Assembly (NCBI GenBank): GCA_048594885.1 | Contig: JBMDXB010000142.1 | Coordinates: 2,148-66,147 of the forward strand | From: Vicinamibacterales bacterium | Lineage (GTDB): Bacteria > Acidobacteriota > Vicinamibacteria > Vicinamibacterales > 2-12-FULL-66-21 | Length of the DNA: 64,000 bases | Direction: 5' to 3' | In this document: piece after piece, positions 3,567 through 64,000 of the stretch | Layout: each line of letters opens with the position of its first letter | Numbering within the stretch: the first letter of the stretch is position 1 | Translations under genes and position numbers: made by a program | Notes under the pieces: model-generated | Told to the model about the DNA's origin: nothing | The model's database searches: none | What the model saw: the letters and a program-made list of their open reading frames with translations, nothing else

Positions 3567-3678
3567 TCCCGGTCAATGCTGAATGCTGAATGCCAAATGC
3601 TGAACGGGGTGCTGCTTGGCCCATTCCCGCATTCCCCGCATTTTCAGCATTTGGCATCAGCATTCAGCATTGACCCGG
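3567..3678. repeat. Imperfect 35-bp-arm inverted repeat built from GCTGAAT heptamers, exactly filling the gap between two convergent stop codons; likely bidirectional terminator
   Basis: Left arm cccggtcaatgctgaatgctgaatgccaaatgctgaa. Right arm ttcagcatttggcatcagcattcagcattgacccgg is the reverse complement with one indel. It is flanked by the stops at 3564-3566 and 3680-3682. Confidence 0.8.
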
Positions 3679-4798: not shown

Positions 4799-6733
4799 AT
4801 GCGCCACTTTCTTCGTGTTGCGGTGCTGCTGCTGACCGCTGTACCGGCAGCGGCGCAGGACGCGGCAGTGCCGGTGCCGCCGGCCGTCAAGCTGGATGGG
4901 GTGCCGCCAATCCCGGTATCGCTGGCGGAACGCTTCGCGCCGTACGGCGAGTTCCGCTTCGCCGAGCTCCTCAACTGGCATCCAACACGCCGGCAGATGC
5001 TGATCGCGACGTCATTCGGCCGTCGTCACGTTCATCTCGTCGACGGCCCGGGGCGCGCCCGCACCCAGGTGACCTTCGGCCCCGTGGTGACGGGCGGCGC
5101 CTGGTACGAGCCGGTGCGCGGCGACTACGTCGTCTTCCGTCGTGACATCGGCGGCGGTGCCGAGCGCTCGCAGTTGTTTCGCTACGACCTCGGCACTCGC
5201 ACCGCGACCATGATCACCGACGGCAAGTCGCGCAACGGCCTGTCCGTCGTCGTTTCCAGGAAGTCCGGCCTCCTCGCCTTCGACTCGTCGCGCCGCACCG
5301 GGAACGATCGCGAGGTCTGGGTCATCGATCCGGCGGAGCCGTCGAGCGCGCGCATCGTGGCGGAGGCGGCCGGCAACTGGATCCCTCAGGACTGGTCGCC
5401 CGACGATCGCGAGCTGCTCGTCGAGGAGCGCGCGTCGACCGACGAGCGCTACATCTGGCGCTTCGACGTGACGACGGGGGTGAGGACGCCGGTGACGTCG
5501 CGCGAGAAGCACCGCGGGTTCTGGGAGATGCCGCGGTTTGGCGGCGATGCTCGTACGGTCTACGCGTTGAGCAACCACGGTGGCGAGGTGACGCGGCTGT
5601 GGCGCACCGACGCCAAGGGTGAGTGGACGCCCATCACGCGCGCGACGGAATCGGTTGAGTGGTATGCGCTGTCGCCGGACGGCCGCACGCTCGCAATCGT
5701 GTTCGACCGCGGCGCCACGAGCGTTCTCGAGCTCGTCGACGGCGCGACGATGAAGACACGCCACGCGCCGAAGCTGCCCGCCGGCACGATCACGAACCTG
5801 CAGTGGCATCGGAACGGCCAGGAGGTCGCCTTCAACCTGCGCTCCGTGCAGACGTTCAACGACGTTTACTCCGTGTCGGCCGCGACCGGATCCGTCGAAC
5901 GCTGGACGACGAGCGAGAGTGGCGGCGTGAACCCCGAGACGTTGCCGAACGCGGAGATCGTCGGCTGGAAAAGCTTCGACGGGCTGACGATCCCCGGAGT
6001 GCTGTACCGGCCGCCCGCGCGTTTCAAGGGGCCGCGTCCGGTGATGATCAACCTCCACGGCGGACCGGACGACTTCCGCGAGCGCCCGCGCTTCCTCGGC
6101 CGCAACGCGTCGTTCGTCAACGAGCTCGGGATTGCGCTGATCTTCCCCAATTTCCGCGGCACCCCTGGCTACGGCCAGGCCTTTCTCGCCGCCGACAACG
6201 GCAGGCAGCGAGAGGACGCGGTGAAAGACATCGGCGCGCTGCTCGACTGGATCGCCCAGCAGCCGGGCCTCGACAAGGATCGCGTCATGGTGACCGGCGC
6301 GAGCTACGGCGGCTACCTGACGTACGCGGTCGCCGCGAAGTACGGCGATCGGATCCGTTGCGCATTCGCCGCCGCGGCGATCTCGAACTTCGTCAGCTAC
6401 CTGGAGCAGACCGACCCCGTCCGCCAGCTCAATCGCCGGTCGGAATACGGCGACGAGCGCGATCCCGCGATGCGCGACTTCCTCACGCAGATTTCGCCCA
6501 CCACCCACGCGTCGAAGATCCGCGTTCCGCTCTTCATCATGCACGGCGCGAAGGACACGCGCGTGCCGCTGGCACAGGCGCAGGAGATGGCGAGTGCCGT
6601 TCGCGCCGCCGGAACGACCGTGTGGGTCGCCGTCTACGGCGACGAGGGGCACACGCTCTGGCAGAACCCGGCGAACAACGATTTCAACCTGCTGACGTGG
6701 GTCATGTTCGTGCAGGAGTACCTTCTGAAGTAA
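4799..6733 (+). CDS. Secreted S9 family peptidase (prolyl oligopeptidase/DPP-like, beta-propeller + alpha/beta hydrolase)
   Basis: Signal peptide MRHFLRVAVLLLTAVPAAAQ. Catalytic-serine motif GASYGGYLT and C-terminal Asp/His region (MHGAKDTRVP ... GDEGHTL). Confidence 0.8.
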   Translation: MRHFLRVAVLLLTAVPAAAQDAAVPVPPAVKLDGVPPIPVSLAERFAPYGEFRFAELLNWHPTRRQMLIATSFGRRHVHLVDGPGRARTQVTFGPVVTGGAWYEPVRGDYVVFRRDIGGGAERSQLFRYDLGTRTATMITDGKSRNGLSVVVSRKSGLLAFDSSRRTGNDREVWVIDPAEPSSARIVAEAAGNWIPQDWSPDDRELLVEERASTDERYIWRFDVTTGVRTPVTSREKHRGFWEMPRFGGDARTVYALSNHGGEVTRLWRTDAKGEWTPITRATESVEWYALSPDGRTLAIVFDRGATSVLELVDGATMKTRHAPKLPAGTITNLQWHRNGQEVAFNLRSVQTFNDVYSVSAATGSVERWTTSESGGVNPETLPNAEIVGWKSFDGLTIPGVLYRPPARFKGPRPVMINLHGGPDDFRERPRFLGRNASFVNELGIALIFPNFRGTPGYGQAFLAADNGRQREDAVKDIGALLDWIAQQPGLDKDRVMVTGASYGGYLTYAVAAKYGDRIRCAFAAAAISNFVSYLEQTDPVRQLNRRSEYGDERDPAMRDFLTQISPTTHASKIRVPLFIMHGAKDTRVPLAQAQEMASAVRAAGTTVWVAVYGDEGHTLWQNPANNDFNLLTWVMFVQEYLLK

Positions 6734-9066: not shown

Positions 9067-9077
9067 CGTCAACTCCC

Positions 9078-9310
9078 AAAGGCCAAGGGCCAAGGACCAA
9101 GCGGCTCAAGTTCCAAGGCCCAAAGACCAAAGACCAAAGACCAAAGACCAAAGACCAAGGCCAAGACCAAGGCCAAAGACCAACGGCCAAAGGGCGCTCA
9201 CTTGGAGGTTGGCCTTTGGTCCGTTGGGAGTTTCGATGCTTGGTCCTTGGCCTTTGGTCGTTGGCAGTTTCGATGCTTGGTCCTTGGTCTTTGGTCGTTG
9301 GTCTTTGACA
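9078..9310. repeat. Heptamer palindromic minisatellite, GGTCTTT/CCAAAGA variant, with a nested 22-bp direct repeat
   Basis: (GACCAAA)5 and CCAAGG units are mirrored by (TTTGGTC)n and CCTTGG units. gtttcgatgcttggtccttgg occurs twice. The repeat lies between the MFS stop and the acyltransferase start. Confidence 0.85.
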
Positions 9311-11825: not shown

Positions 11826-11992
11826 AGACATCCGTCCCTGGTCCCTGGTCCTGGTCCCGAGTCCCTGGTCCCTGGTCCCGAGTCCCTCGTCCCGAGTCAG
11901 TCCCGGGACCAGGGACCCGAGACCAGGGACCCGAGACCAGGGACCCCGAGACCAGGGACCCGTGACCAGGGACTAGGGACCAGGGACGGGGA
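11826..11992. repeat. Heptamer palindromic minisatellite: (GGTCCCT)n ... (AGGGACC)n
   Basis: About 10 units of GGTCCCT/GGTCCCG are followed by about 10 units of GAGACCAGGGACCC and similar. The M28 peptidase stop codon lies inside the right arm. Confidence 0.9.
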
Positions 11993-14261
11993 TGCGCGGC
12001 GCGAGAATCCACGCCGCGTTCGCTCCCCAGACAGTGCGTTCCTGCGGCAGCCATGCGGGCAGCGACTGCCAGCCGGTCCCGCCCGGAATCCGGCCCGACG
12101 TGACGACCATGCGGGTGGCGGCAAACGGCGACGGATCGGTGGTGCCGAAGTACGCGCGCCAGACGACGCCGTCGGCGGGCGGCGCGACGTATGTCGCGCT
12201 CCAGCGGCCGTTGCGGACGATGCCCGGCAGGTTGCTGCGGGCGGGTTTCTGGCCCGCAGGCGCGACGAACGTGACGGTGACTCCCGGCTGCGACGGCACG
12301 ACCGTCGCCGTCACCTCGACGCCGCGTTCGACCGGCGTCTGCGTGAACGCGGTGATGTGCGCCGGCGCCGGACCGAGTGCCGGGCCGCGCGTGCGAAAGA
12401 CGAACGCGAACGGCCAGCGCACCATCGGTACGCTCACGGCGGGAGCGTCGGTGGCCGGCACCCATCCACCGGGCGCGCCGCTCTCGAGATCGAGACCCGG
12501 CTCCGTCGAAGCCACTTCCCACACCGCGTTCGCCGCGTCGCCATCCTGGATGGCCCGCAGGTACCTGCGCAGCGGCCGGTCTTCCGTGTAGGCAGGCGCC
12601 GCGTAGGCGAATCCAGCGGCAATCGCAATCGCGGCGAGGCACGCAGCGGTGATGAGCGGCGGCCGGGGGAGAGGCGTCGGCCGCGCGGCTGCCGCGAGGA
12701 ACGGCGGCGCCACCATCAAGCCCACGGCGGCAACTACGGCCGCGTAGACGTATACCGGCGTCACGACCGGCAACCGGCCGAAGACAGCCACGACGAACCG
12801 CGACAGCTCGATGCCGTTCCGCAGCCAGAGGGTCCCGGCCACGGCCAGCACGACCACGGAGGCGGCGCGCACGAGCGGCTCGTTGCGGGTGGGCACGATC
12901 GTCAGCAGCACGCCGGCCGCAAAGAGCGGCACGGTCCACAGGTAGGCGGCTGCTGGCCCGGCCCACAACGAGACCGACGCGAGCACGATCCACACCGGAA
13001 GCGCGACGCTCCAGACAACCGACGGATGCCGCGTGAGATGCGCGCGCGGCGGCAGCCAGGTTCCGATGCGCGTTGCCGCCCACCCGAGAGCGATTCCCGT
13101 GGCTGCGAGCAGAATCAGCAGCCGATCCGGGTGCGCATACCAGGGGCTGTACGATTCCCGCGCCGCCCGCAGCGCCCACGTGGCCGCAACCATTCCGGCT
13201 GCCGAGACCACGAACGCGATCGCGGCCCACACGAACGTCAGCAGCCAGCGCAGGACGCCCCCTATCCCGACCGCCGTCGCGGTGACCTTCACGACGGCGA
13301 TCGCGCCGAACACGAGCGCGGCCGCGGCTATCAGCCAGCCCGTGCGCGGCCCGTAGCTGACGGCGGCCTTCGGGCCGGCATCGAAGTACGTCGCATCGGA
13401 TGCGTTGCGCTGCGTGATGTCGACGTCTTGCAGCGCCGCCAGGATGGTAGCGGCGTTCTCGCCGGCCTCGCGCAGCGCCGCCGGCTCGATCCGCGCCGGC
13501 GTGTCGCGCGCGGTGTGGTACCCGTAGCTGTTGCCGACCACCGCGAAGTTCAGTCCGGGAATGTCGTGCCGCTTGAAGATGGTGAAGTCCGTGTCGTTCG
13601 GCAGGCGCTTGTACACTTCGATGCCCATCGAACCGCCGCGCGGATGCGGCGCGTGCCGCGCCCAGGTCTTCACGAGCCACGCGTTGCCAGGTCCCGTCTC
13701 GAACAGCATGACCGGCCGCGACGTTCCGCTGGCCTCGAAATTCAGGTAGGCCCTCAGCCGATCGGTGACCTCCCGATCGGTGACCAGGGCGGCGGCGCCC
13801 ATCAGGCCGGCTTCCTCGGCATCGGTGACCAGCACGAACAGCGACCACCGGCGCCTCTCCCTCGACGCGAACGTTCTCGCCGCTTCCAGCGAGACCGCCA
13901 CTCCGAACGCATCGTCGCCGCCGCCGGGAGTGTCGAGCCCGGAGTCGTAGTGCGAGACGAGCCCGATCGCCTCCGGCCGTTCGCCGGCGAGCGTGGCGAT
14001 GATGTTCGACACGCGGGCGGTGCGCCCGAGCTCGGGCCGGCGCGCGTCGGTTTCCTGCACGCGCACGTCGAAGCCGTACAGCCGCAACTGGTCGATGATG
14101 TAGCTGCGCGCGCGCGCATTCTCAGGCGTGCCGACCCAGCGGCTGCCGATCGTGCCGGCGAGCATTTCCACGTGCGAACGGGCGTTCTCCTCGACGAAGA
14201 GTGCGGCAGGGCGGGAGCAGGCGGAAAGGAAGAGGACGGCGAAGACGGAAACAGCGCGCAT
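11973..14261 (-). CDS. M28 family metallopeptidase fused to a polytopic membrane domain
   Basis: M28 motifs (HYDS, DDAFG, EEAGLMG) with about 8 predicted TM helices in the central part. Confidence 0.75.
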   Translation of the reverse strand: MRAVSVFAVLFLSACSRPAALFVEENARSHVEMLAGTIGSRWVGTPENARARSYIIDQLRLYGFDVRVQETDARRPELGRTARVSNIIATLAGERPEAIGLVSHYDSGLDTPGGGDDAFGVAVSLEAARTFASRERRRWSLFVLVTDAEEAGLMGAAALVTDREVTDRLRAYLNFEASGTSRPVMLFETGPGNAWLVKTWARHAPHPRGGSMGIEVYKRLPNDTDFTIFKRHDIPGLNFAVVGNSYGYHTARDTPARIEPAALREAGENAATILAALQDVDITQRNASDATYFDAGPKAAVSYGPRTGWLIAAAALVFGAIAVVKVTATAVGIGGVLRWLLTFVWAAIAFVVSAAGMVAATWALRAARESYSPWYAHPDRLLILLAATGIALGWAATRIGTWLPPRAHLTRHPSVVWSVALPVWIVLASVSLWAGPAAAYLWTVPLFAAGVLLTIVPTRNEPLVRAASVVVLAVAGTLWLRNGIELSRFVVAVFGRLPVVTPVYVYAAVVAAVGLMVAPPFLAAAARPTPLPRPPLITAACLAAIAIAAGFAYAAPAYTEDRPLRRYLRAIQDGDAANAVWEVASTEPGLDLESGAPGGWVPATDAPAVSVPMVRWPFAFVFRTRGPALGPAPAHITAFTQTPVERGVEVTATVVPSQPGVTVTFVAPAGQKPARSNLPGIVRNGRWSATYVAPPADGVVWRAYFGTTDPSPFAATRMVVTSGRIPGGTGWQSLPAWLPQERTVWGANAAWILAPRIPVPGP

Positions 14262-23162: not shown

Positions 23163-24055
23163 CACATCACGATCTTGTTGAGCGGGTACTCGACGATGCC
23201 CTGTGCGCGGGCCGCCTTGAGGCGCGGAATCAACTCGCGCACGGTGCGCTCCTCGATGATCGTGTTCAGCGCGACCCACTCGCCATCGCTGAGCGGTGAC
23301 ACCGTCGGCCGCTGCAGCGCCGGCAGGAGCGACAGCACGTTCTGGAGATCCGAGACCCGGACGTTCAGCATGATGCCGACGCGCCCCTGTGCCTCGATGG
23401 CTGCTTTCAGCAGCAGCGCGATGTTGTCCACCTTCGTGCGCTTCCATTCGTCGTTCAGCGACGCGGCGTTCGCGATCAACTGCGTGTTGGATTCGAGAAC
23501 CGTGTCGATGACGCGCAGCCGGTTCGCGCGCAGCGACGAGCCGGTCTCGGTGACCTCGACGATCGCGTCGGCGAGCGTCGGCGGCTTCACCTCGGTGGCG
23601 CCCCACGAGAACTCGACCGTGACGTTGACGCCATGCTTCGCGAAGTACGCCTGCGTCGCGCGCACCAGCTCGGTCGCGACGGTGGCACCTTCGAGATCGC
23701 GCACGTCGCGGTAGCGCGAGTCCTCAGGCACCGCGAGCACCCAGCGGACCTTGCCGAAGCTTTGCTTGGCATAGACGAGATCGGCGATCGGCACGATCGA
23801 AGCGCCGCCGCCGTTGGCCGCGGCGTGCTCGGCGATCCAGTCCTGTCCGGTGAGTCCCGCGTCGAGCACGCCGTCGGCGACGTAGCGCGCCATCTCCTGC
23901 GCGCGGATCAGCATGCACTCGATCTCGGGGTCGTCAATCGTCGGAAAGTACGACCGCGAGCTCGCGTAGATGTTGAACCCCGCCCGCGCGAACAACTGGA
24001 TCGTCGCGTCCTGCAGCGACCCCTTCGGTATTCCCAACCGCAGCTTTTGAGTCAT
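23162..24055 (-). CDS. hisG: ATP phosphoribosyltransferase (long form with C-terminal regulatory domain)
   Basis: [27 protein letters not shown]. The ORF track's upstream extension is encoded by the G-rich repeat and was discarded. Confidence 0.85.
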
Positions 24056-24125
24056 CGTTCTCTCGGCCCCCCGGCCCCCCGGCCCCCCGGCCCCCGGCCC
24101 CCCGGCCCCTCGGCCCCCCGGCCCC
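24056..24125. repeat. G-tract minisatellite (GGGGGGCC)n on the transcribed strand, filling the whole hisI-hisG intergenic spacer
   Basis: The plus strand reads ctcggccccccggccccccggccccccggcccccggccccccggcccctcggccccccggccccc. The mRNA strand carries eight or more G5-6 tracts. Confidence 0.85.
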
Positions 24126-24437
24126 CTAGCTCCCAAACTCCCTGAAGCAGCTTCGGGTTCCGGTGTGGCAGACGTTGCCGTCGCCGAGGCGCGTCACCTT
24201 CAACACCAGCGAGTCATCGTCGCAATCGACGAGGATCTGTTCGACCTTCAGCCGGTTGCCCGACGTCTCGCCTTTCATCCACAGCTTCTGGCGTGTGCGG
24301 CTGTAGAAGGTCGCGAAGCCGCTCTCGAGCGTGCGATCGAGCGCGTCCTGGTTCATGAAGCCGACCATCAGCACTTCGCCCGAAGCGTTGTCCTGAATCA
24401 CGGCCGGAATGAGCCCGTCCAGTTTTGAAAAGTCCAT
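24126..24437 (-). CDS. hisI: Phosphoribosyl-AMP cyclohydrolase
   Basis: [29 protein letters not shown] ... CHTGTRSCF identifies HisI. Confidence 0.85.
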
Positions 24438-24443
24438 AAACGC

Positions 24444-24477
24444 AAAAAGCCCCGCTGAATCTCTCCAGCGGGGCTTT
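24444..24477 (-). terminator. Rho-independent terminator-like hairpin (GCCCCGCTG-gagagatt-CAGCGGGGC + UUUUU on the minus strand), 7 nt upstream of the hisI ATG
   Basis: Perfect 9-bp GC-rich stem followed by CTTTTT on the minus strand. Confidence 0.6.
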
Positions 24478-24595
24478 GGAAGTTGCGACCGTTTCGTGGT
24501 CTGGTTCAGCGCATTCGCAACTCGACCGGCCCGCCGGAGCAGGATGCATGGTGATGCCGGTGATGATGCTGGACGCGTGCCATTGGCATGTTAGT

Positions 24596-24626
24596 AGGGG
24601 CGGAGCTTGCTCCGCCCACACCGTGC
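24596..24626. repeat. REP-like hairpin GTAGGGGCGGAGC-TTGC-TCCGCCCAC
   Basis: Perfect 9-bp stem. The same core recurs at 26590-26640 and, reverse-complemented, at 46895-46920. Confidence 0.7.
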
Positions 24627-24630
24627 AAGC

Positions 24631-26370
24631 CTATCGTGCGGTCAGGCGCGGCGTCAAGCCGGCGGGGATCGACACCTTCGAATCCGCGCTGCGCGTGTCG
24701 TTCGCGCCGTAGGCGACACCGTCGGGTCCGATCCAGATCGAATGCGCGTCACCCTGGCGTCCCTGCGCGCGCACGTCGTGCCCGAGCGCCTTCAATTGCG
24801 CGAGGATCTCTGCCGTCACGCGCCCGTCGTCTTCGAGCGTCGCGCGATCCGGCAGCCACTGATGATGCAGTCGAGTCAGGTCTACGGCCTCGCGGCCATT
24901 CAGCCCGTACTCCGTCACGCCGAGGACAACGGTCAGCACCGTGTTGATGATCGTCCGCCCTCCGGGCGACCCCGTCAGCAGCACCACCTTCCCGTCCTTC
25001 AGCACCATCGCCGGCGTCATCGAGCTGAGCATGCGCTTGCCGGGATCGATCACGTTGGCGGACGTGCCGATGTCGCCGGTCAGGTTCGTCTCGCCCGGCT
25101 TCTTGTTGAAATCGCCCATCTCGTTGTTCAGGAGGAACCCGGCGCCTTTGACGACCACGCGCGAGCCGTACCCTCCTTCGAGCGTGTAGGTGTTGACCAC
25201 GGCCATGCCACTGCGATCGATCACCGAGAAGTGCGTGGTCTCATCGGACTCGGTGGTGGCGACGGTGACGATGTCCTTGCCGAGCTCGACGCTGCTCGCG
25301 GCCTTGTTCATCTCGATGCCGGAGGCAAGCTGCTTCGCGTACGGCTTCGACGTGAGCCGCGCAACCGGCACGTTCACGAAGTCCGGATCGCCGAGATGCC
25401 GCGCGCGATCGAGGTACGCGCGCTTCATCGCCTCGATCTGGAGGTGCAGCGCCGGCGCCGTGAGCAGGCCTTTCGATTTCAGATCGAACGGCTCGAGGAT
25501 GTTGAGCATCTCGATGAGCGCCACGCCGCCCGAGCTCGGTGGCGGCATCGACACGATCTCGTGGCCGCGATACCTGCCGCGCACGACCTTGCGCTCTTTC
25601 GCCCGGTAGGCGGCGAGGTCCCGCTTCGTGATGATTCCGCCGTTGGCCGCCATGTCCTCGGCGATGCGGTCGGCGATCCAGCCCTTGTAGAAGACGTCGG
25701 GTCCGTCCGTAGCGATGGCGCGCAGCGTGCGCCCGAGATCCGTGAGCACGAGTCGGTCGCCTTCCCGCCATTGGCCGCCGCCCGGCTTGCCGTACGCGGC
25801 GACGGAGGCAGGAAACCTGCCCATCGCGCCTTCGAGCTGCGCGCTCAAGCCGCGCGCGAGGCTGGCGGACATCGTGAAGCCCTGCTCCGCGAGCTCCACC
25901 GCAGGCATGACGACGTCCTTCCATGGCAACTTGCCGTACTTGCGATGCGCGAGCTCGAGGCCGCGGACGGTGCCGGGAACGCCGGGCGCCAGGTATCCAG
26001 ACGCCGTCAGGCTGCGGTCGATCTTGCCGTCCGCGCCGAGATACATCGTCCGCGTCGATTTGAGCGGTGCCCGCTCGCGATAGTCGAACGCCGACGTCTT
26101 CCCGGACGGTGTGCGTACGATCATGAAGCCACCGCCGCCGATGTTGCCCGCGCTCGGGTGCGTGACGGCGAGCGCGAACGCGGTTGCGACAGCCGCGTCG
26201 ACAGCATTGCCGCCGCGCGCCAGAACCGATGCACCTGCGTCGCATGCCGGCGCGGACGTGCACACGACCATGCCGGTTCGCGACGGGACGCCCGGCTCCG
26301 CCACGGCGCGCACGGGCACGCGCACGAGCGCAATCGACAGGCACACAACAAGCCAGCGACAAGATCTCAT
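24631..26370 (-). CDS. ggt: Gamma-glutamyltransferase
   Basis: Signal peptide, then GGT motifs (TTHFSVIDRSGMAVV, GGYGSRVVV), giving 579 aa. Confidence 0.85.
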   Translation of the reverse strand: MRSCRWLVVCLSIALVRVPVRAVAEPGVPSRTGMVVCTSAPACDAGASVLARGGNAVDAAVATAFALAVTHPSAGNIGGGGFMIVRTPSGKTSAFDYRERAPLKSTRTMYLGADGKIDRSLTASGYLAPGVPGTVRGLELAHRKYGKLPWKDVVMPAVELAEQGFTMSASLARGLSAQLEGAMGRFPASVAAYGKPGGGQWREGDRLVLTDLGRTLRAIATDGPDVFYKGWIADRIAEDMAANGGIITKRDLAAYRAKERKVVRGRYRGHEIVSMPPPSSGGVALIEMLNILEPFDLKSKGLLTAPALHLQIEAMKRAYLDRARHLGDPDFVNVPVARLTSKPYAKQLASGIEMNKAASSVELGKDIVTVATTESDETTHFSVIDRSGMAVVNTYTLEGGYGSRVVVKGAGFLLNNEMGDFNKKPGETNLTGDIGTSANVIDPGKRMLSSMTPAMVLKDGKVVLLTGSPGGRTIINTVLTVVLGVTEYGLNGREAVDLTRLHHQWLPDRATLEDDGRVTAEILAQLKALGHDVRAQGRQGDAHSIWIGPDGVAYGANDTRSADSKVSIPAGLTPRLTAR

Positions 26371-26389: not shown

Positions 26390-26550
26390 GGTCCCTCGTC
26401 CCTGGTCCCTGGTCGCGCGTCCTTGGTCGCGAGTCCCTGGTCACAGGTCCCTCGTCATAGGTCGATGCGTTGCCGATGACGGGACCCGCGACCCGGGACC
26501 CGCGACCCGGGACCAGGGACCCGCGACCCGGGACAAGGGACCAGGGACCA
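26390..26550. repeat. Heptamer palindromic minisatellite (GGTCCCT/GGTCGCG ... CGGGACC/AGGGACC) in the divergent ggt/glgX promoter region
   Basis: Tandem 7-mers and their reverse complements, read directly from the sequence. Confidence 0.85.
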
Positions 26551-29603: not shown

Positions 29604-30269
29604 ATGCACATCTGGCAGATCACCTCGTTCACGATTGCGATGGCACTGCTGGCGACCGTGCTGATGCTGCCGCCCGGCATTCTGGTGGGCTGGCTGCTTG
29701 CACGGCGCCGCTTTCCCGGTCGCGTGCTGGTCGAGACGCTCGTGTCGCTGCCGCTCGTGATGCCGCCGGTCGCGACCGGGCTGCTGCTCCTGACGCTCGT
29801 CGCGCCGGCGGGTCCCGTCGGACGCCTGCTCGCGCACGCCGGCATCGACATCGTCTTCACCTGGAAGGGCGTCGTGCTGGCGATGGCGGTAATGGGACTC
29901 CCGCTCGTCGTCCGCAGCGTGCGCGCGGGTGTGGAGCAGGTGGACAGCCGGCTCGAGGCGGTCGCGTCGACGCTCGGCGCGCCGCCGTGGCGCGTGTTCT
30001 ATTCGATCACGCTGCCGCTGGCGCTCCCCGGCGTGCTCGCCGGCGCGATCCTCGGGTTCGCGCGCGCGCTCGGCGAATTCGGCGCGACGATCATGGTGGC
30101 CGGCAGCATTCCTGGTTCGACGCGAACGCTTGCCATCGCGATCTATTCCTTCGTTGAGACCGGCCGCGAGAACGACGCACTAACCCTCGTGGCGATCAGC
30201 GGTGCGATCGCGTTCGCGGCATTGTGGTTGTCGAACTGGCTCTCCGCGCGGACGGGGCTGCGGTCGTGA
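29604..30269 (+). CDS. modB: Molybdate ABC transporter permease
   Basis: MHIWQITSFTIAMALLATVLMLPPGILVGWLLARRRFPG with the EAA-loop region GAPPWRVFYSITLPLALPG. Confidence 0.8.
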   Translation: MHIWQITSFTIAMALLATVLMLPPGILVGWLLARRRFPGRVLVETLVSLPLVMPPVATGLLLLTLVAPAGPVGRLLAHAGIDIVFTWKGVVLAMAVMGLPLVVRSVRAGVEQVDSRLEAVASTLGAPPWRVFYSITLPLALPGVLAGAILGFARALGEFGATIMVAGSIPGSTRTLAIAIYSFVETGRENDALTLVAISGAIAFAALWLSNWLSARTGLRS

Positions 30270-30976
30270 TCACGCTCGACTTCGTGCTGCGGCAGGGAGA
30301 GTTCGAGCTCGAGATCCACGAGCGGATCGACGTCCGCGTCACCGCGCTGTTCGGTCCGTCGGGCGCCGGCAAGACCACGGTGCTCGACGCGATCGCGGGG
30401 CTGCGCACGCCGGCGCACGGAACGATTGCCGTCGGAGAGCGGCAGCTCTTTTCGTCGGGGGAGGCGGGGAGCCGGGGGGCCGGGGAGGCGGGGAGCCGGG
30501 GAGCCGGGGGGCCGGGGAGCCGGGGGGCCGGGGAGCCGGGGGGCCGCACGATCAATCTGCCGCCGCATCAGCGTCACGTCGGCTACGTCACCCAGGACGT
30601 CGCGCTCTTTCCGCATCTGAACGTGCGGCGCAACGTGCTCTACGGTCAGCGGCACGGGCAGAAGCTCGATCTGACGACGGTCGCCGGGATGCTGGAGGTC
30701 GGCTCGCTGCTCGACCGCCACGTCCACCAGCTCTCAGGCGGAGAGAAGCAGCGCGTCGCGCTCGCGAGGGCGCTGATGTCGGCGCCGTCGGTGCTGCTGC
30801 TCGACGAGCCGCTCGCAGCCGTTGACGTCGAGCGGCGCCGCCGGATCCTGCCGTATCTCGAGCGCGTTCGCGATCAGCTCGCGGTGCCGATCATCTACGT
30901 GACGCACGATCAGGAGGAGCTGCGGCGCATCGCCGACCGCGTCATCACGCTCGCCGACGGCCGTGTGACTACGTAG
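30266..30976 (+). CDS. modC: Molybdate-type ABC transporter ATP-binding protein carrying an in-frame Gly-rich minisatellite insertion
   Basis: Walker A GPSGAGKT, signature LSGGEKQR and Walker B LLLDEP. The GTG start overlaps the modB stop. Residues GEAGSRGAGEAGSRGAGGPGSRGAGEPG are encoded by the G-tract repeat at 30458-30546. Confidence 0.75.
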   Translation: MITLDFVLRQGEFELEIHERIDVRVTALFGPSGAGKTTVLDAIAGLRTPAHGTIAVGERQLFSSGEAGSRGAGEAGSRGAGGPGSRGAGEPGGRTINLPPHQRHVGYVTQDVALFPHLNVRRNVLYGQRHGQKLDLTTVAGMLEVGSLLDRHVHQLSGGEKQRVALARALMSAPSVLLLDEPLAAVDVERRRRILPYLERVRDQLAVPIIYVTHDQEELRRIADRVITLADGRVTT

Positions 30977-35468: not shown

Positions 35469-35915
35469 ATGGACGCATTTCTCGACGCCGCGATCGCAGA
35501 GGCGGAGGCCGGCCTCCGTGAGGGCGGGATTCCAATCGGGTCGGTCATCGTCCATCGGGGGCGCATCATCGGGCGAGGCCACAACCGTCGCGTGCAGCAA
35601 GGAAGCGCGATCCTCCATGGCGAGATGGATGCGCTCGAGAAGGCCGGCCGGCAGCCGGCGGCCGTGTATCGCGAATGCGTCCTCTACACGACGCTGTCGC
35701 CCTGCGCGATGTGCACGGGCGCGATCCTGCTCTACGGCATCCCGACCGTCATCGTCGGCGAGAACCGGACGTTCATGGGCGAGGAGGAGCTGCTGCGGTC
35801 ACGCGGCGTGTCAGTGGAGGTACGGCAGGACCCGCGCTGCATCCGGATGATGGAGGGGTTCATCGCAGCGCATCCGAAGTTGTGGAATGAAGATATAGGC
35901 GTCCCTGGTCCCTAG
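35469..35915 (+). CDS. Nucleoside (cytosine-type, Fcy1-like) deaminase, CMP/dCMP deaminase zinc-binding fold
   Basis: HGEMDALE ... SPCAMCTGA zinc ligands. The C-terminus ...WNEDIG resembles yeast Fcy1. Confidence 0.75.
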   Translation: MDAFLDAAIAEAEAGLREGGIPIGSVIVHRGRIIGRGHNRRVQQGSAILHGEMDALEKAGRQPAAVYRECVLYTTLSPCAMCTGAILLYGIPTVIVGENRTFMGEEELLRSRGVSVEVRQDPRCIRMMEGFIAAHPKLWNEDIGVPGP

Positions 35916-36243
35916 TCCCTGGTCACGGGTCCCCGGTCACGGGTCCCCGGTCACGGGTCCCGGGTCACGGGTCCCGAGTCCCCCCGGTCACGGGTCCCGA
36001 GTCCCCCCGGTCACGGGTCCCGAGTCCCCACGGTCACGGGTCCCGAGTCCCCACGGTCACGGGTCCCGGCTCGTGACGAGGGACGTGACCTGTGACCAGG
36101 GACCTGTGACCTGTGACCAGGGACCTGTGACCTGTGACCAGGGACCTGTGACCAGTGACCAGTGACCAGTGACCAGGGACCAGGGACTAGGGACCAGGGA
36201 CTAGGGACCAGGGACCAGGGACTAGGGACCAGGGACCAGGGAC
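35901..36243. repeat. Largest heptamer palindromic minisatellite (~340 bp): (GGTCACGGGTCCCC)n ... (GTGACCAGGGACC)n between convergent genes
   Basis: At least 12 14-bp double units on the left and their reverse complements on the right. It exactly fills the gap between the deaminase stop (35915) and the lysC stop (36252). Confidence 0.9.
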
Positions 36244-39373: not shown

Positions 39374-39508
39374 GCCACAGCGTTTTGACACGGAATACAC
39401 GGAGGACACGGAGGAAACGGAGGTCACGGAGACAAATATTCACTCTTCATTGAGAAACTACCAGAAGACTCCGTGTTCTCCGTGACCTCCGTGTTCAAAC
39501 GCTGTGTA
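39374..39508. repeat. Nonamer palindromic minisatellite (CACGGAGGA)4 ... (TCTCCGTGA)n with an AT-rich centre
   Basis: cacggaatacacggaggacacggaggaaacggaggtcacggagac ... gactccgtgttctccgtgacctccgtgttcaaacgctgtg, with outer arms cagcgttttgacacgg/ccgtgttcaaacgctg. Confidence 0.85.
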
Positions 39509-61086: not shown

Positions 61087-63771
61087 CTACGGTCTTGCGA
61101 TGTACTTCCGGTACAGCGCGTCATGCTTGTTATCGACGCCGACGTCCCTGCCGTTGATGACGACGTGCGTGACCTGCGTGCGAACTTCGAGGGGATCACC
61201 TTTCGCGATGAACAGGTTCGCGTCCTTGCCGGCCTCGAGGCTGCCGACGCGATCCGCGACCCCGAGGATCTCGGCCGCGTCGATCGTGAGCGCCTTCAAC
61301 GCCTGATCGCGGTTGAGGCCCCAGGCGACGGACATCGCGGCGTGGTACGGCAGCAGGCGGACGTTGGTGTTATCGCCGGTTGCGAACGCGAACTTCACGC
61401 CGGCCTGCGCCAAACGGCCGGCGAGCTGATAGCTGTCGGCGTGGAACGCATCCTCGCGCGACGGCATCGTCAGGATGCCGCCGAGGATCACGGGAATATT
61501 CTTTTCCTGGAGCAGCGGCGCGACGTACGCGGCCTCGGCGCCGCCGCTGATGACGATTTTCACCTTCGCGCGATCGGCGAACGCGATCGCGTCTTTGATG
61601 TCCTGCTCGCGGCCGGCGTTCGTGATGAGCGGCAGCTTCCCGGTGACGACGGGGACGAGCGCCTCGAGCTCCCAGTCGATTGTCCTGCCCGCCGGCAGCT
61701 TCGAGTAGGCGCGCGCGCGATCGAGCAGCCGGATGATCTCGTCGAGTTGCCGGTCGCGCTCGCGCTTCAGATCCTCATAGGTACGATCCGGAGGCGCTCC
61801 GCCGAATCCACGCCCGCCGCCGAAGCCGCCGCGTCCACCACCGCCGCCGACCGCCGGGAAGTTGAACGCGACGCCCGCGTTCGGCCGGAGAGTCGCTTCC
61901 TCCCACGTCCAGCCGTCGAGATTCATCACCGGCACTTCGCCGCCGAAGAGACCGCCCGACGGCGCGACCGCGACCGTCGTGACGCCGTTCGCGCGCGCCA
62001 CGGGAATCGCCTCGCTCTCGGAGTGGTAGGCGACGCGCGTGCGCAGGTACTGGTTGTGTTCCAGCATCTCACTGACGTCGTCGTAGCCGCGCACGCCCGG
62101 CTCGCCGATCCCGATCGTCGTCCGCGCGTTGATGAATCCCGGGTAGACGTGGCCGCCGGCGGCGTCGATCACCTTCGCGCCCGCGGGAACCTGGACGTTG
62201 GCGCCGACGGCCTGGATCTTCCCGCCGCTGATGACGATCGTGCCGCGCTGAATCGTCGCGGCCGTGATCGGATGGATCGTCGCGTTGGTGATGGCAAGCA
62301 CACCGCCGCTCGCCGCCTGCTCTTTCCGTGGCGCCAACGGACCGGAACCCCCGGAACCCATGGAACCCCCGGAACCGTTGTCCTGTTCCTGGCTCGTGCC
62401 AGTCACCGGCGCCCGCCGTTCCGATTGCTCCGCCGCAGCGAGATCGCCCTTCAGCTTGCGCAGTTCCGTCAGCCTGCGATCCTCCGCGTTGCGGTCGTAG
62501 TAGAGCGTGCCGTCGATGTAGGTCCGCTCGACGATCGCGTAGGAGCTGAGCGGATGGTGCGTCCAGACGACGACGTCGGCGTCCTTGCCGGTTTCGAGCG
62601 AGCCGACACGGTTGTCGATGCGGAGCTGTTTCGCCGGATTGATCGTGACGAGCGCCAGCGCCTCGTCTTCGCTGAGGCCGCCCCACTTGATCGACTTGGC
62701 CGCCTCGGTGTTCAGCCGGCGCGCGTGCTCCGCGCTGTCGGAGTTGATCGACACCAGCACGCCCGTGCGCACCATGATCGCGGCGTTGTGCGGGATGGCA
62801 TCGGCCGCCTCGATCTTGTAGCCCCACCAGTCGGAGAACGTGGAGGCGCCGGCGCCGTGCGCGGCGATCTCCTTCGCCACCTTGTAGCCCTCGAGTACGT
62901 GCTGGAAGGTCGCGATCTTGAAGCCCATCTCCTCGGCGAGGCGGATCAGCATCAGGATCTCGTCGGCGCGGTAGCAGTGCGCGTGCACGAGGCGCTTGCC
63001 GTCGAGGATCTCGACGAGCGGCTCGAGCTGGAGGTCACGACGCGGCGGCAGCACGCTCTGGCCGGCGGCTTTCTTCTTCTCGTAGTCCTGCCAGTCTTTC
63101 TTGTAGGCCTTCGCACGCGTGAACGCGTCGCGGATGACGTACTCGACGCCCGCGCGTGTAATCGGATACCGCTGCGGGGTCGTCCGCTGCCCGAGCGTGA
63201 TGTCCTTGGGGTTTTCGCCGAGCGCGAACTTGATGCCGGGCATCGCGCCCTCGAAGAGCAGTTCTTCGGGCCGCGTCTTGCCCCAGCGCAGCTTGATGAC
63301 CGCGTTCTTGCCACCGATCGGGTTGGCGCTGCCGTGCAGCACGTTCGCCGTCGTCAGGCCGCCGCCGAGATCGCGATAGATGCTGACGTCGGTCGGATCG
63401 AGCACGTCCTCGATCCCGGTCATCGAGCTGACGGTCGTGCCGCCTTCATTGATTGCGTCGGCGGCGATGTGCGAGTGGGCGTCGATGATGCCGGGCGAGA
63501 CGAACTTGCCGGTGACGTCGATCACCTCGGCGTTCGCCGGGATGTTGACGTTCGCTCCGACCGCCGCGATCTTGCCGTCACGCAGCAGCACGGTGCCGCT
63601 GCGGATCGTCCCTTTTGTCACCGTCACGACGGTGCCGCCCTTGAGCGCGACAATTCCGGAACGAGTCGAGGCCGCAGAGGGAGCCTGGCCTGACAGCCTC
63701 GGCGCAAGCGGCAGCATGAAAACGACGGCGGCCAGCGCGACGATGAGCAGCGATAGACGTCGACCTCTCAC
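61087..63771 (-). CDS. Large secreted amidohydrolase family protein (two amidohydrolase-like modules joined by a Gly/Ser linker)
   Basis: GIIDAHSHI and GFINARTTIG motifs. The GTG start at 63771 has a GGGAGGA RBS and the protein has a signal peptide. Confidence 0.7.
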   Translation of the reverse strand: MRGRRLSLLIVALAAVVFMLPLAPRLSGQAPSAASTRSGIVALKGGTVVTVTKGTIRSGTVLLRDGKIAAVGANVNIPANAEVIDVTGKFVSPGIIDAHSHIAADAINEGGTTVSSMTGIEDVLDPTDVSIYRDLGGGLTTANVLHGSANPIGGKNAVIKLRWGKTRPEELLFEGAMPGIKFALGENPKDITLGQRTTPQRYPITRAGVEYVIRDAFTRAKAYKKDWQDYEKKKAAGQSVLPPRRDLQLEPLVEILDGKRLVHAHCYRADEILMLIRLAEEMGFKIATFQHVLEGYKVAKEIAAHGAGASTFSDWWGYKIEAADAIPHNAAIMVRTGVLVSINSDSAEHARRLNTEAAKSIKWGGLSEDEALALVTINPAKQLRIDNRVGSLETGKDADVVVWTHHPLSSYAIVERTYIDGTLYYDRNAEDRRLTELRKLKGDLAAAEQSERRAPVTGTSQEQDNGSGGSMGSGGSGPLAPRKEQAASGGVLAITNATIHPITAATIQRGTIVISGGKIQAVGANVQVPAGAKVIDAAGGHVYPGFINARTTIGIGEPGVRGYDDVSEMLEHNQYLRTRVAYHSESEAIPVARANGVTTVAVAPSGGLFGGEVPVMNLDGWTWEEATLRPNAGVAFNFPAVGGGGGRGGFGGGRGFGGAPPDRTYEDLKRERDRQLDEIIRLLDRARAYSKLPAGRTIDWELEALVPVVTGKLPLITNAGREQDIKDAIAFADRAKVKIVISGGAEAAYVAPLLQEKNIPVILGGILTMPSREDAFHADSYQLAGRLAQAGVKFAFATGDNTNVRLLPYHAAMSVAWGLNRDQALKALTIDAAEILGVADRVGSLEAGKDANLFIAKGDPLEVRTQVTHVVINGRDVGVDNKHDALYRKYIARP

Positions 63772-64000
63772 GCGAGTCCTCCCATGATCAGTTGAAGGTG
63801 GGTACCGGCCCTTCGGGAAACGAGAAACTGTACCAAATCGCAGCCGCCCGACGCAAAACAACGCCGAGGCGGCAGAGGACGCCGAGATCGCCGAGGGATC
63901 AAGGTGATTTGAGCGTTATCAGGCCGCCGTGCGCCCGCCTGCGGCGGGCGTAGTGAGAGCGAGTGGAGTGGTGGACGTAAGCACGGACATCATCACCGCG

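Follow-up and report, generated by a model that had tools for sequence, protein, structure and literature searches.

Between hisI and hisG, in the his operon of the window (the whole stretch of 64,000 nucleotides analyzed here, with a GC content of 66-70% and derived from a soil member of the Vicinamibacterales, Acidobacteriota), lies a gap of 70 nt made up almost wholly of G and C. The question raised by this locus is whether this gap controls the expression of hisG or is simply a repeat that the operon tolerates. The first-pass annotation had described a G-rich repeat filling the whole hisI-hisG spacer inside the his operon, and direct reading and TRF both confirmed that description. It had further proposed that a G-quadruplex (G4) formed by the repeat gates the translation of hisG, a claim that is weighed below against the anatomy of the locus, the orthologous junctions and the other repeats of the window. 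The features concerned are listed in Table 1.

Table 1. Features of the his region and of the related array in the window.
Feature	Position	Strand	Remarks
hisG, long-form ATP phosphoribosyltransferase, 297 aa	23162..24055	minus	ATG at 24055-24053
GAGAGAACG, sole non-repeat part of the spacer	24056..24064	minus	purine-rich, weak SD-like GAGAGA, predicted unpaired
(GGGGGGCC)x8 tandem array	24065..24126	minus	G-rich on the mRNA-sense strand; direct reading and TRF
hisI, phosphoribosyl-AMP cyclohydrolase, 103 aa	24126..24437	minus	stop codon TAG at 24128-24126
Putative intrinsic-terminator hairpin	24446..24477	minus	14-bp stem and U run; ends 8 nt before the hisI ATG
Candidate his leader peptide ORF, MPMARVQHHHRHHHASCSGGPVELRMR followed by a stop, 27 codons	24506..24589	minus	six His codons in seven
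(GGGGAGCC/GGGGGGCC)x11 array	30458..30546	plus	in frame in modC-like ABC ATPase ORF 30224-30976

U is absent from the spacer (24056-24125, minus strand), which is composed of 48 G, 17 C and 5 A and is thus 69% G. Read on the minus strand, in the sense of the mRNA, the junction runs ...GGG AGC TAG / GGGGCC GGGGGGCC GAGGGGCC GGGGGGCC GGGGGCC GGGGGGCC GGGGGGCC GGGGGGCC GAGAGAACG ATG ACT CAA, the slash marking the end of hisI. Five of the array units are perfect copies of GGGGGGCC, one is GAGGGGCC, one is the 7-nt GGGGGCC and the first is AGGGGGCC, which takes in the final AG (2 nt) of the hisI stop codon, the G at 24126 being both the G of that stop and the first G of the unit. TRF reported the array at 24064-24126 with a period of 8, 8.0 copies, 92% matches and a score of 112, a purity which suggests that the array is recent or still homogenizing. 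The eight or more tracts of G5-6 claimed earlier were found in the number of eight, but their lengths (5, 6, 4, 6, 5, 6, 6 and 6) run from G4 to G6 and are not all G5-6. Counted from the hisG AUG, the end of the last tract is at -12, and the G-rich strand is, as had been stated, both the mRNA strand and the non-template strand. A search for the two-unit 16-mer with up to 2 mismatches gave 15 matches in the window, the expectation from shuffles being 0.19 (15 or more in 0 of 100 shuffles), and the 15 were divided between the hisI-hisG array (7) and a second array at 30458-30546 (8). The near-perfect, head-to-tail arrangement of a G-rich unit within the 6-9-nt range, seen by TRF and on direct reading, places the array among the G-rich simple sequence repeats (SSRs) of the type described by Rehm et al.

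The gene order on the minus strand is leader, hisI, hisG, hisD, hisC and hisB, and the hisG stop overlaps the hisD ATG by 1 nt (TGATG). HisI is a monofunctional PRA-CH with a score above the NCBIfam cutoff, and HisG is the long form with a C-terminal regulatory domain (NCBIfam). A scan of the region revealed no promoter-like site or terminator in the spacer and, since the downstream genes are also tightly packed, the array is very probably carried in a polycistronic mRNA. A 324-aa ORF starting at TTG 24136 is open through the repeat. However, a G/C-only sequence has no stops in any frame, so that an open frame across the array is no evidence of coding, and the public protein 100% identical to the HisG of the window has 297 aa, indicating that the deposited hisG annotation starts at ATG 24055. 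The earlier view that the extension of the hisG ORF through the repeat is an artefact was therefore correct. It was also correct in seeing a weak GAGAGA as the only Shine-Dalgarno (SD) candidate, GAGAGAACG being the only purine-rich stretch ahead of the hisG ATG. Most gene starts in the window and in the related loci L164 and L166 have no recognizable SD within 25 nt, hisI being preceded by UUUUUGCGUUU, which suggests that initiation in this clade is largely SD-independent. A HisI-HisG fusion produced by +1 frameshifting or readthrough at AGC-TAG-G was also considered and discarded, as no slippery site is present.

The operon appears to have a control of its own upstream of hisI. The leader region folds much better than shuffled sequences (z = -3.45), and a mini-ORF with a run of His codons precedes hisI in 109 of 128 acidobacterial loci (for example MFSSQHHHRHHHAHRLGGPVELCTR followed by a stop in L001). 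The hairpin at 24446-24477 is presumed to be the attenuator terminator, a terminator after the leader ORF having been looked at in the source window only, and the leader ORF and terminator together have, as far as the sequence tells, the layout of a classical leader-peptide his attenuator. An Rfam scan of 23800-24800 gave no match for the his leader/terminator region, and no description of such a his attenuator for Acidobacteria was found in the literature; attenuators in Acidobacteria are almost all unannotated according to Naville & Gautheret (2010). Since a leader attenuator and the feedback domain of the long-form HisG are both available, histidine-responsive control would not need the repeat.

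The propensity of the spacer to form G4 is very high in silico, in agreement with the first-pass annotation. The G4 prediction that it had called for gave a G4Hunter mean of 2.06 over the spacer, and the regular expression for G4 motifs (G3+N1-7), which calls for at least four tracts of at least three G with short loops, gave two matches. According to G4Hunter, no other segment of the 64 kb comes near the hisI-hisG array and the array at 30458-30546 in its G4 propensity. ViennaRNA with its G4 model predicted two stacked G4s at -83.4 kcal/mol, compared with -36.2 kcal/mol for hairpins only, and left GAGAGAACGAUG unpaired. Watson-Crick folding of the spacer without G4 was no better than that of dinucleotide shuffles (z = -0.59) and gave an essentially open centroid, which rules out a Watson-Crick hairpin as the relevant structure. 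The same z value, the absence of U and the lack of a terminator in the scan are not those of an intrinsic (Rho-independent) terminator. Nor does the spacer belong to a known cis-regulatory RNA family, as the Rfam scan of 23800-24800 gave no match in it at E<=1 and only two sub-threshold chance matches elsewhere.

The history of the junction was examined in relatives. The best HisG matches in the genome and metagenome collections were 85-86% identical and came from Vicinamibacterales/Acidobacteriota MAGs, and a protein search retrieved closer relatives with HisG 89-91% identical, but no sequence of the same species. The contigs of these closer relatives are syntenic and keep the order ggt-hisI-hisG, together with glgX and, where the contig reaches, modA. 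Across the phylum hisI lies directly upstream of hisG (79 genome loci and 74 scorable metagenome loci of Acidobacteriota). The modal junction is a 4-nt ATGA overlap, present in 49 of the 74 scorable metagenome loci and in most of the genome loci, and almost all of the remaining junctions in both sets fall between -11 and +10 nt. The 70-nt spacer of the window departs from this norm of an overlap or a gap of less than about 10 nt; its hisG still begins with ATGA. Because the 4-nt overlap is overwhelmingly common in acidobacterial loci, it is the ancestral junction, with hisI and hisG translationally coupled. The G6C2 array was absent from the junction in all orthologous his operons examined, including those of the syntenic relatives with 89-91% HisG identity, and related loci totalling 1.44 Mb yielded no match to a regular expression for G(3-7)..CC arrays, so that the array is confined to the lineage of the window.

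Other relatives deviate from the modal junction in ways of their own. The overlap is 16 nt in L167-169; in P0008 an overlap was called, which would amount to about 13 nt, as inferred from the protein, if the Met aligned with the start in the window is used. Eight loci carry a hairpin-type insert between hisI and hisG, with a reasonable SD (L161-L165, about 133 nt; L170, 202 nt; L171/L172, 76 nt). Arrays of other units are found at the same place. In L166 (9959-10001) an (AAGGGTC)x6 array and in the more distant L019 (5920-5965) a (CCCTTGC)x6.6 array are translated as the C-terminal tail of HisI, the ATGA overlap being kept in both. Two other loci further away contain a CGGATTAC-like repeat of 30 nt (L081) and a heptamer hairpin of 120 nt (L024). 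Judging from these loci, unrelated repeats have landed or expanded at the hisI-hisG junction again and again.

Some further observations were made in these loci. The hairpin-type inserts have conserved ends (ACAGCCACNGTCACGC ... GCGTGACTGTG) and a variable interior, and the JGI gene calls place spurious ORFs of 46-47 aa across them. The AAGGGTC unit of L166 also fills its hisB-hisH junction (13885-13939). In the hisG-hisD spacer of many Acidobacteriota a 7-8-nt array stands right after the hisG stop, almost always with G>C on the sense strand (L007, L009, L015, L033 with (GGGGTTA)x6.4, L090 and L092 are examples), where the window has its 1-nt overlap instead.

The second array of the G6C2 unit lies in the coding region of modC and is G-rich on the sense strand of that gene. 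The 28 Gly-rich residues that it encodes, GEAGSRGAGEAGSRGAGGPGSRGAGEPGG, stand between Walker A and the Q-loop and are lacking in the 70%-identical orthologue of L166. The orthologous site of L166 reads TCGTCGG/CG/CCGCG, and such a site is compatible with growth of the array from a GG..CC seed. The G6C2 unit thus occurs at two sites in the 64 kb, one intergenic and one coding, and GGGGNGCC is present at two sites of the window 6.4 kb apart.

These two arrays are members of a larger population. TRF found 17 arrays with a period of 5-10 and at least 3.5 copies, at about 11 sites in the 64 kb, and several of them take up 67-100% of the gap between two genes, whether the pair is convergent, divergent or tandem. 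A family of the form (GTCCCTG)n...(CAGGGAC)n is present at 4-5 sites of the window, including 11834-11987, 26390-26549 and 35901-36243. We also observed gaps largely filled by inverted pairs of 7-9-nt arrays (3575-3671, 9076-9307, 11834-11987, 26390-26549, 35901-36243 and 39387-39496). These pairs, up to 340 nt long, begin at or within the last codons of the flanking genes and would form very long hairpins.

Array units tend to recur within a genome. Exact identity of the canonical unit was found in 7 of 81 within-genome pairs and 9 of 2130 between-genome pairs (odds ratio about 22, the pairs not being independent), and identity with up to 1 mismatch in 20 of 81 and 102 of 2130, respectively, again for pairs that are not independent. 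This recurrence shows that the arrays did not originate just by random local slippage and that some dispersal or sequence preference must be involved, as in other bacteria with heptamer families of their own (PMC6749651; PMC4692102). The strand on which G predominates was also recorded. At the hisI-hisG and hisG-hisD junctions of relatives 16 of 20 arrays have G>C on the sense strand, in a subset that was chosen post hoc and includes related genomes, and for all 48 intra-operon arrays the bias is marginal (31:17, p = 0.059). Among the first arrays after the hisG stop in relatives the proportion is 12 of 13. Of the four exceptions among the 20 junction arrays, those of L024 and L111 come after a G-rich array at their junction and may represent the 3' arms of hairpins; the other two, of L019 and L115, are the only or first array at theirs. 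Both G-rich arrays of the window are sense-oriented despite lying on opposite genomic strands. Positive selection for G-rich structure in the RNA could explain such a bias equally well.

Taking these results together, we consider it probable that the hisI-hisG array is a young, lineage-specific STR belonging to a population of 7-9-nt junction arrays, one that uncouples and dampens hisG and is tolerated rather than serving as a switch. The ancestral genes overlapped (ATGA), with hisG translated by termination-reinitiation coupling. The array would have arisen or expanded exactly where hisI meets hisG, slipped-strand amplification of a short G/C seed being the simplest route, and the start of hisG thereby came to lie 70 nt from the stop of hisI. 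The U-free, G-rich gap would then be transcribed within the leader-hisI-hisG-hisD-hisC-hisB mRNA, the coupling of hisI and hisG would be lost, and hisG would now initiate alone, from an SD-poor site 12 nt 3' of a potential and very stable RNA G4. Given an SD-poor clade and a last G tract that borders on the initiation region, one would most likely expect this loss of coupling together with some drop in hisG initiation; the output of HisG relative to HisI would most likely be lowered, and changes in copy number could shift it gradually. We assume the effect to be neutral or mildly deleterious, the array being probably tolerated and not selected as a switch.

An untranslated, unstructured and C-rich RNA within an operon is an ideal entry site for Rho. 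The G-rich, C-poor sense orientation may thus be the tolerated one, as it would create no Rho-loading site inside the operon. A phase-variable contingency locus was also considered. The array stands between the hisI stop and the hisG start, with no promoter-like site, and classical phase variation is ruled out because a step of 8 nt changes only the length of the spacer. The direction of a G4 effect on hisG could go either way, since in E. coli RNA G4s repress or enhance translation according to their position: repression was reported for a G4 near the RBS and enhancement for one about 46 nt upstream (PMC11087576; PMC4692102).

The gating of hisG proposed by the first-pass annotation amounts, in its full form, to an adaptive RNA G4 riboregulator kept by selection, which would control hisG independently of hisI in response to, for example, K+, temperature or a G4 helicase. 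Several features of the spacer speak for it: its in-silico G4 stability is very high, its eight tracts are exactly enough for two complete G4s, 12 nt separate the AUG from the last tract, which is hence inside the 30S footprint, structure at the start site should matter in an SD-poor clade, intra-operon arrays are biased to G on the sense strand, and RNA G4s do repress translation near the RBS and enhance it when distal in E. coli (PMC11087576; PMC4692102). A dedicated gate is, however, not supported. Half of the condition that the first-pass annotation had set for its refutation, orthologous operons that lack the repeat, was observed: no other his operon examined carries it, even at 89-91% HisG identity. 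The ancestral arrangement is the 4-nt overlap, the same unit is found in the coding region of modC, and the window holds about a dozen arrays of 7-9 nt. Moreover, the presumed leader attenuator and HisG feedback would already regulate the pathway, the start region of hisG is left unpaired in the model, and Rehm et al. found no regulatory role for analogous repeats (PMC4692102). The gating hypothesis is thus unproven and, on the comparative data, not favoured; we judge the riboregulator to be rather unlikely. Similar doubt applies to the proposal that the G-rich segment after the hisI stop serves the processing or stability of the mRNA, blocking 3'-5' exonucleases or insulating against Rho in a REP-like manner, so that segments of the operon would differ in stability. 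The position just after a stop is the one preferred by the G-rich repeats of Xanthomonas and Nostoc, 12 of the 13 arrays that come first behind the hisG stop in relatives have G>C on the sense strand, and the spacer is C-poor and U-free. Against this, the array is not conserved in relatives, there is no evident gain from stabilizing hisI alone, since the pathway genes lie downstream, and an action of this kind by G4 arrays has no experimental support in any bacterium, so that we hold this function to be improbable.

A different origin would be that the G6C2 unit, like the GTCCCTG family, was spread by a templated or recombinational process, the hisI-hisG junction being one landing site among others. 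The enrichment of shared units within genomes (odds ratio about 22 for exact identity, although the pairs in that test are not independent), GGGGNGCC at two sites 6.4 kb apart, AAGGGTC at two junctions of the L166 his operon, GTCCCTG/CAGGGAC at 4-5 sites of the window and the species-specific scattered heptamer families of Chloroflexus, Nostoc and Xanthomonas all point in this direction. On the other hand, the surroundings of arrays of the same family show neither conserved flanks nor terminal inverted repeats nor target duplications, a GG..CC seed is plausible for the modC site and no candidate enzyme was identified; dispersal of this kind is unlikely to be the explanation. Unlikely as well is a wider scenario in which Acidobacteriota, especially Vicinamibacterales, carry genome-specific 7-8-nt arrays that are actively seeded at gene boundaries and spread to junctions and ORFs in the sense-G orientation, the G6C2 array having replaced the coupling of hisG with a G4-dependent initiation tunable by copy number. 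It is very improbable that the array is coding, that is, that hisG starts at TTG 24136 with an 11-nt overlap of hisI, a 27-aa Gly/Arg-rich N-terminal extension and its coupling intact. The frame is open from that TTG, arrays are translated in L166, L019 and modC, and overlaps of -11 nt exist in some relatives, but G/C-only sequence is open in every frame, the N-termini of HisG from relatives align to a 12-residue stretch at the HisG start of the window, the deposited product has 297 aa and TTG is a weak start. An artefact of sequencing or assembly, such as poly-G noise or a collapsed repeat, would be conceivable in a metagenome-type contig, low-complexity G-rich sequence being error-prone. It is hardly to be expected of an array of 62 nt, shorter than a read, with periodic CC, internal variants and intact, correctly ordered flanking genes, when the related second array keeps modC in frame and comparable arrays are present in many independent assemblies. 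The young and tolerated STR remains the reading that we prefer.

Among described systems, the closest to the G6C2 array in its sequence features are the G4-forming heptameric SSRs of Xanthomonas (GGGAATC, GGGNATC) and Nostoc (GGGGA(C/T)T) reported by Rehm et al. 2015 (PMC4692102), which are intergenic between co-directional ORFs, lie just after stops on the sense strand and have no demonstrated function (PMC4692102). In both cases head-to-tail, G-rich units of 7-8 nt are found between co-directional ORFs, with a length and sequence variable between close relatives and no link to a class of genes. The described repeats are mostly intergenic and occur in many copies per genome, as the arrays of the window may do as well. 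The G6C2 unit differs in being a G/C-only octamer with G5-6 tracts and 2-nt CC loops, in occurring in Acidobacteriota and in that its G4 is known from prediction. There are eight units here, whereas the repeats of Rehm et al. favour four, and the array occupies an ancestrally overlapping junction and has a sister array inside a coding region.

Species-specific families of scattered short repeats include the cyanobacterial STRR heptamers, the (GATAGRA)n of Chloroflexus and the GC-rich 6-8-nt SSRs of Burkholderia (PMC6749651). As in the window, genome-specific units are found at many loci of large or high-GC genomes. Those families were catalogued genome-wide, whereas the present survey covered 64 kb and homologous loci, and many heptamer arrays of the window differ from them in forming inverted pairs capable of long hairpins. 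In-gene copies of the rapidly evolving, independently arising and otherwise intergenic tandem repeats of Borgs are in frame and encode disordered, low-complexity segments (PMC9879509), as the modC array is in frame and encodes a low-complexity segment. The units of Borg repeats are longer, however, and these repeats are carried by extrachromosomal elements of archaea and do not occur in the host chromosome.

Two better known repeats offer partial comparisons. The human C9orf72 repeat, (GGGGCC)n, forms G4s in DNA and RNA as well as hairpins, and impedes transcription. Its composition is nearly identical to that of the present array (G4C2 versus G6C2), which makes it a biophysical precedent only; it is eukaryotic and intronic, reaches hundreds of copies in disease and has no evolutionary relation to the G6C2 array. 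REP/BIME elements of enterobacteria follow a conserved consensus, are imperfectly palindromic and have their own transposase (RAYT). Like the G6C2 array they are repetitive and tolerated in operons between a stop and the next start, where such sequences can alter the relative expression of the flanking cistrons. Unlike REP, the G6C2 array is a direct tandem repeat whose hairpin is no better than random. An element of the REP/MITE type was not recognized at the locus, as the repeat is direct only, with no inverted repeats, and the two G-rich arrays have unrelated flanks.

As a single locus, the hisI-hisG array is of minor importance and is not a conserved regulator. It is of use as a natural experiment, in which an ancestrally overlapping and coupled gene pair was pulled 70 nt apart by an extremely G4-prone sequence in an SD-poor organism, and the overlap, the hairpin insert and the translated array found at the same junction of relatives provide the comparison set for measuring the effect of an intercistronic RNA G4 on coupling. 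The sharing of units within genomes and the G bias of the sense strand constrain models of origin. The heptamer and octamer arrays known from cyanobacteria, Xanthomonas and Chloroflexus are also prominent in soil Acidobacteriota, for which we found no description of them; a literature search pairing Vicinamibacter or Vicinamibacteria with tandem repeats likewise returned none.

There is also a consequence for annotation, since pipelines extend ORFs or call spurious ORFs across arrays, and recognizing the arrays avoids mis-set starts. In L016 (about 5960-6060) hisI and hisG form one ORF with the N-terminus of HisG out of frame, a reading that probably stems from an indel error in a long-read MAG rather than from a genuine fusion. 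A further repeat of the window, the nonamer (CCGGAACCC)x3.9 at 62342-62376, lies inside the large minus-strand ORF 61087-63861, its period being a multiple of three.
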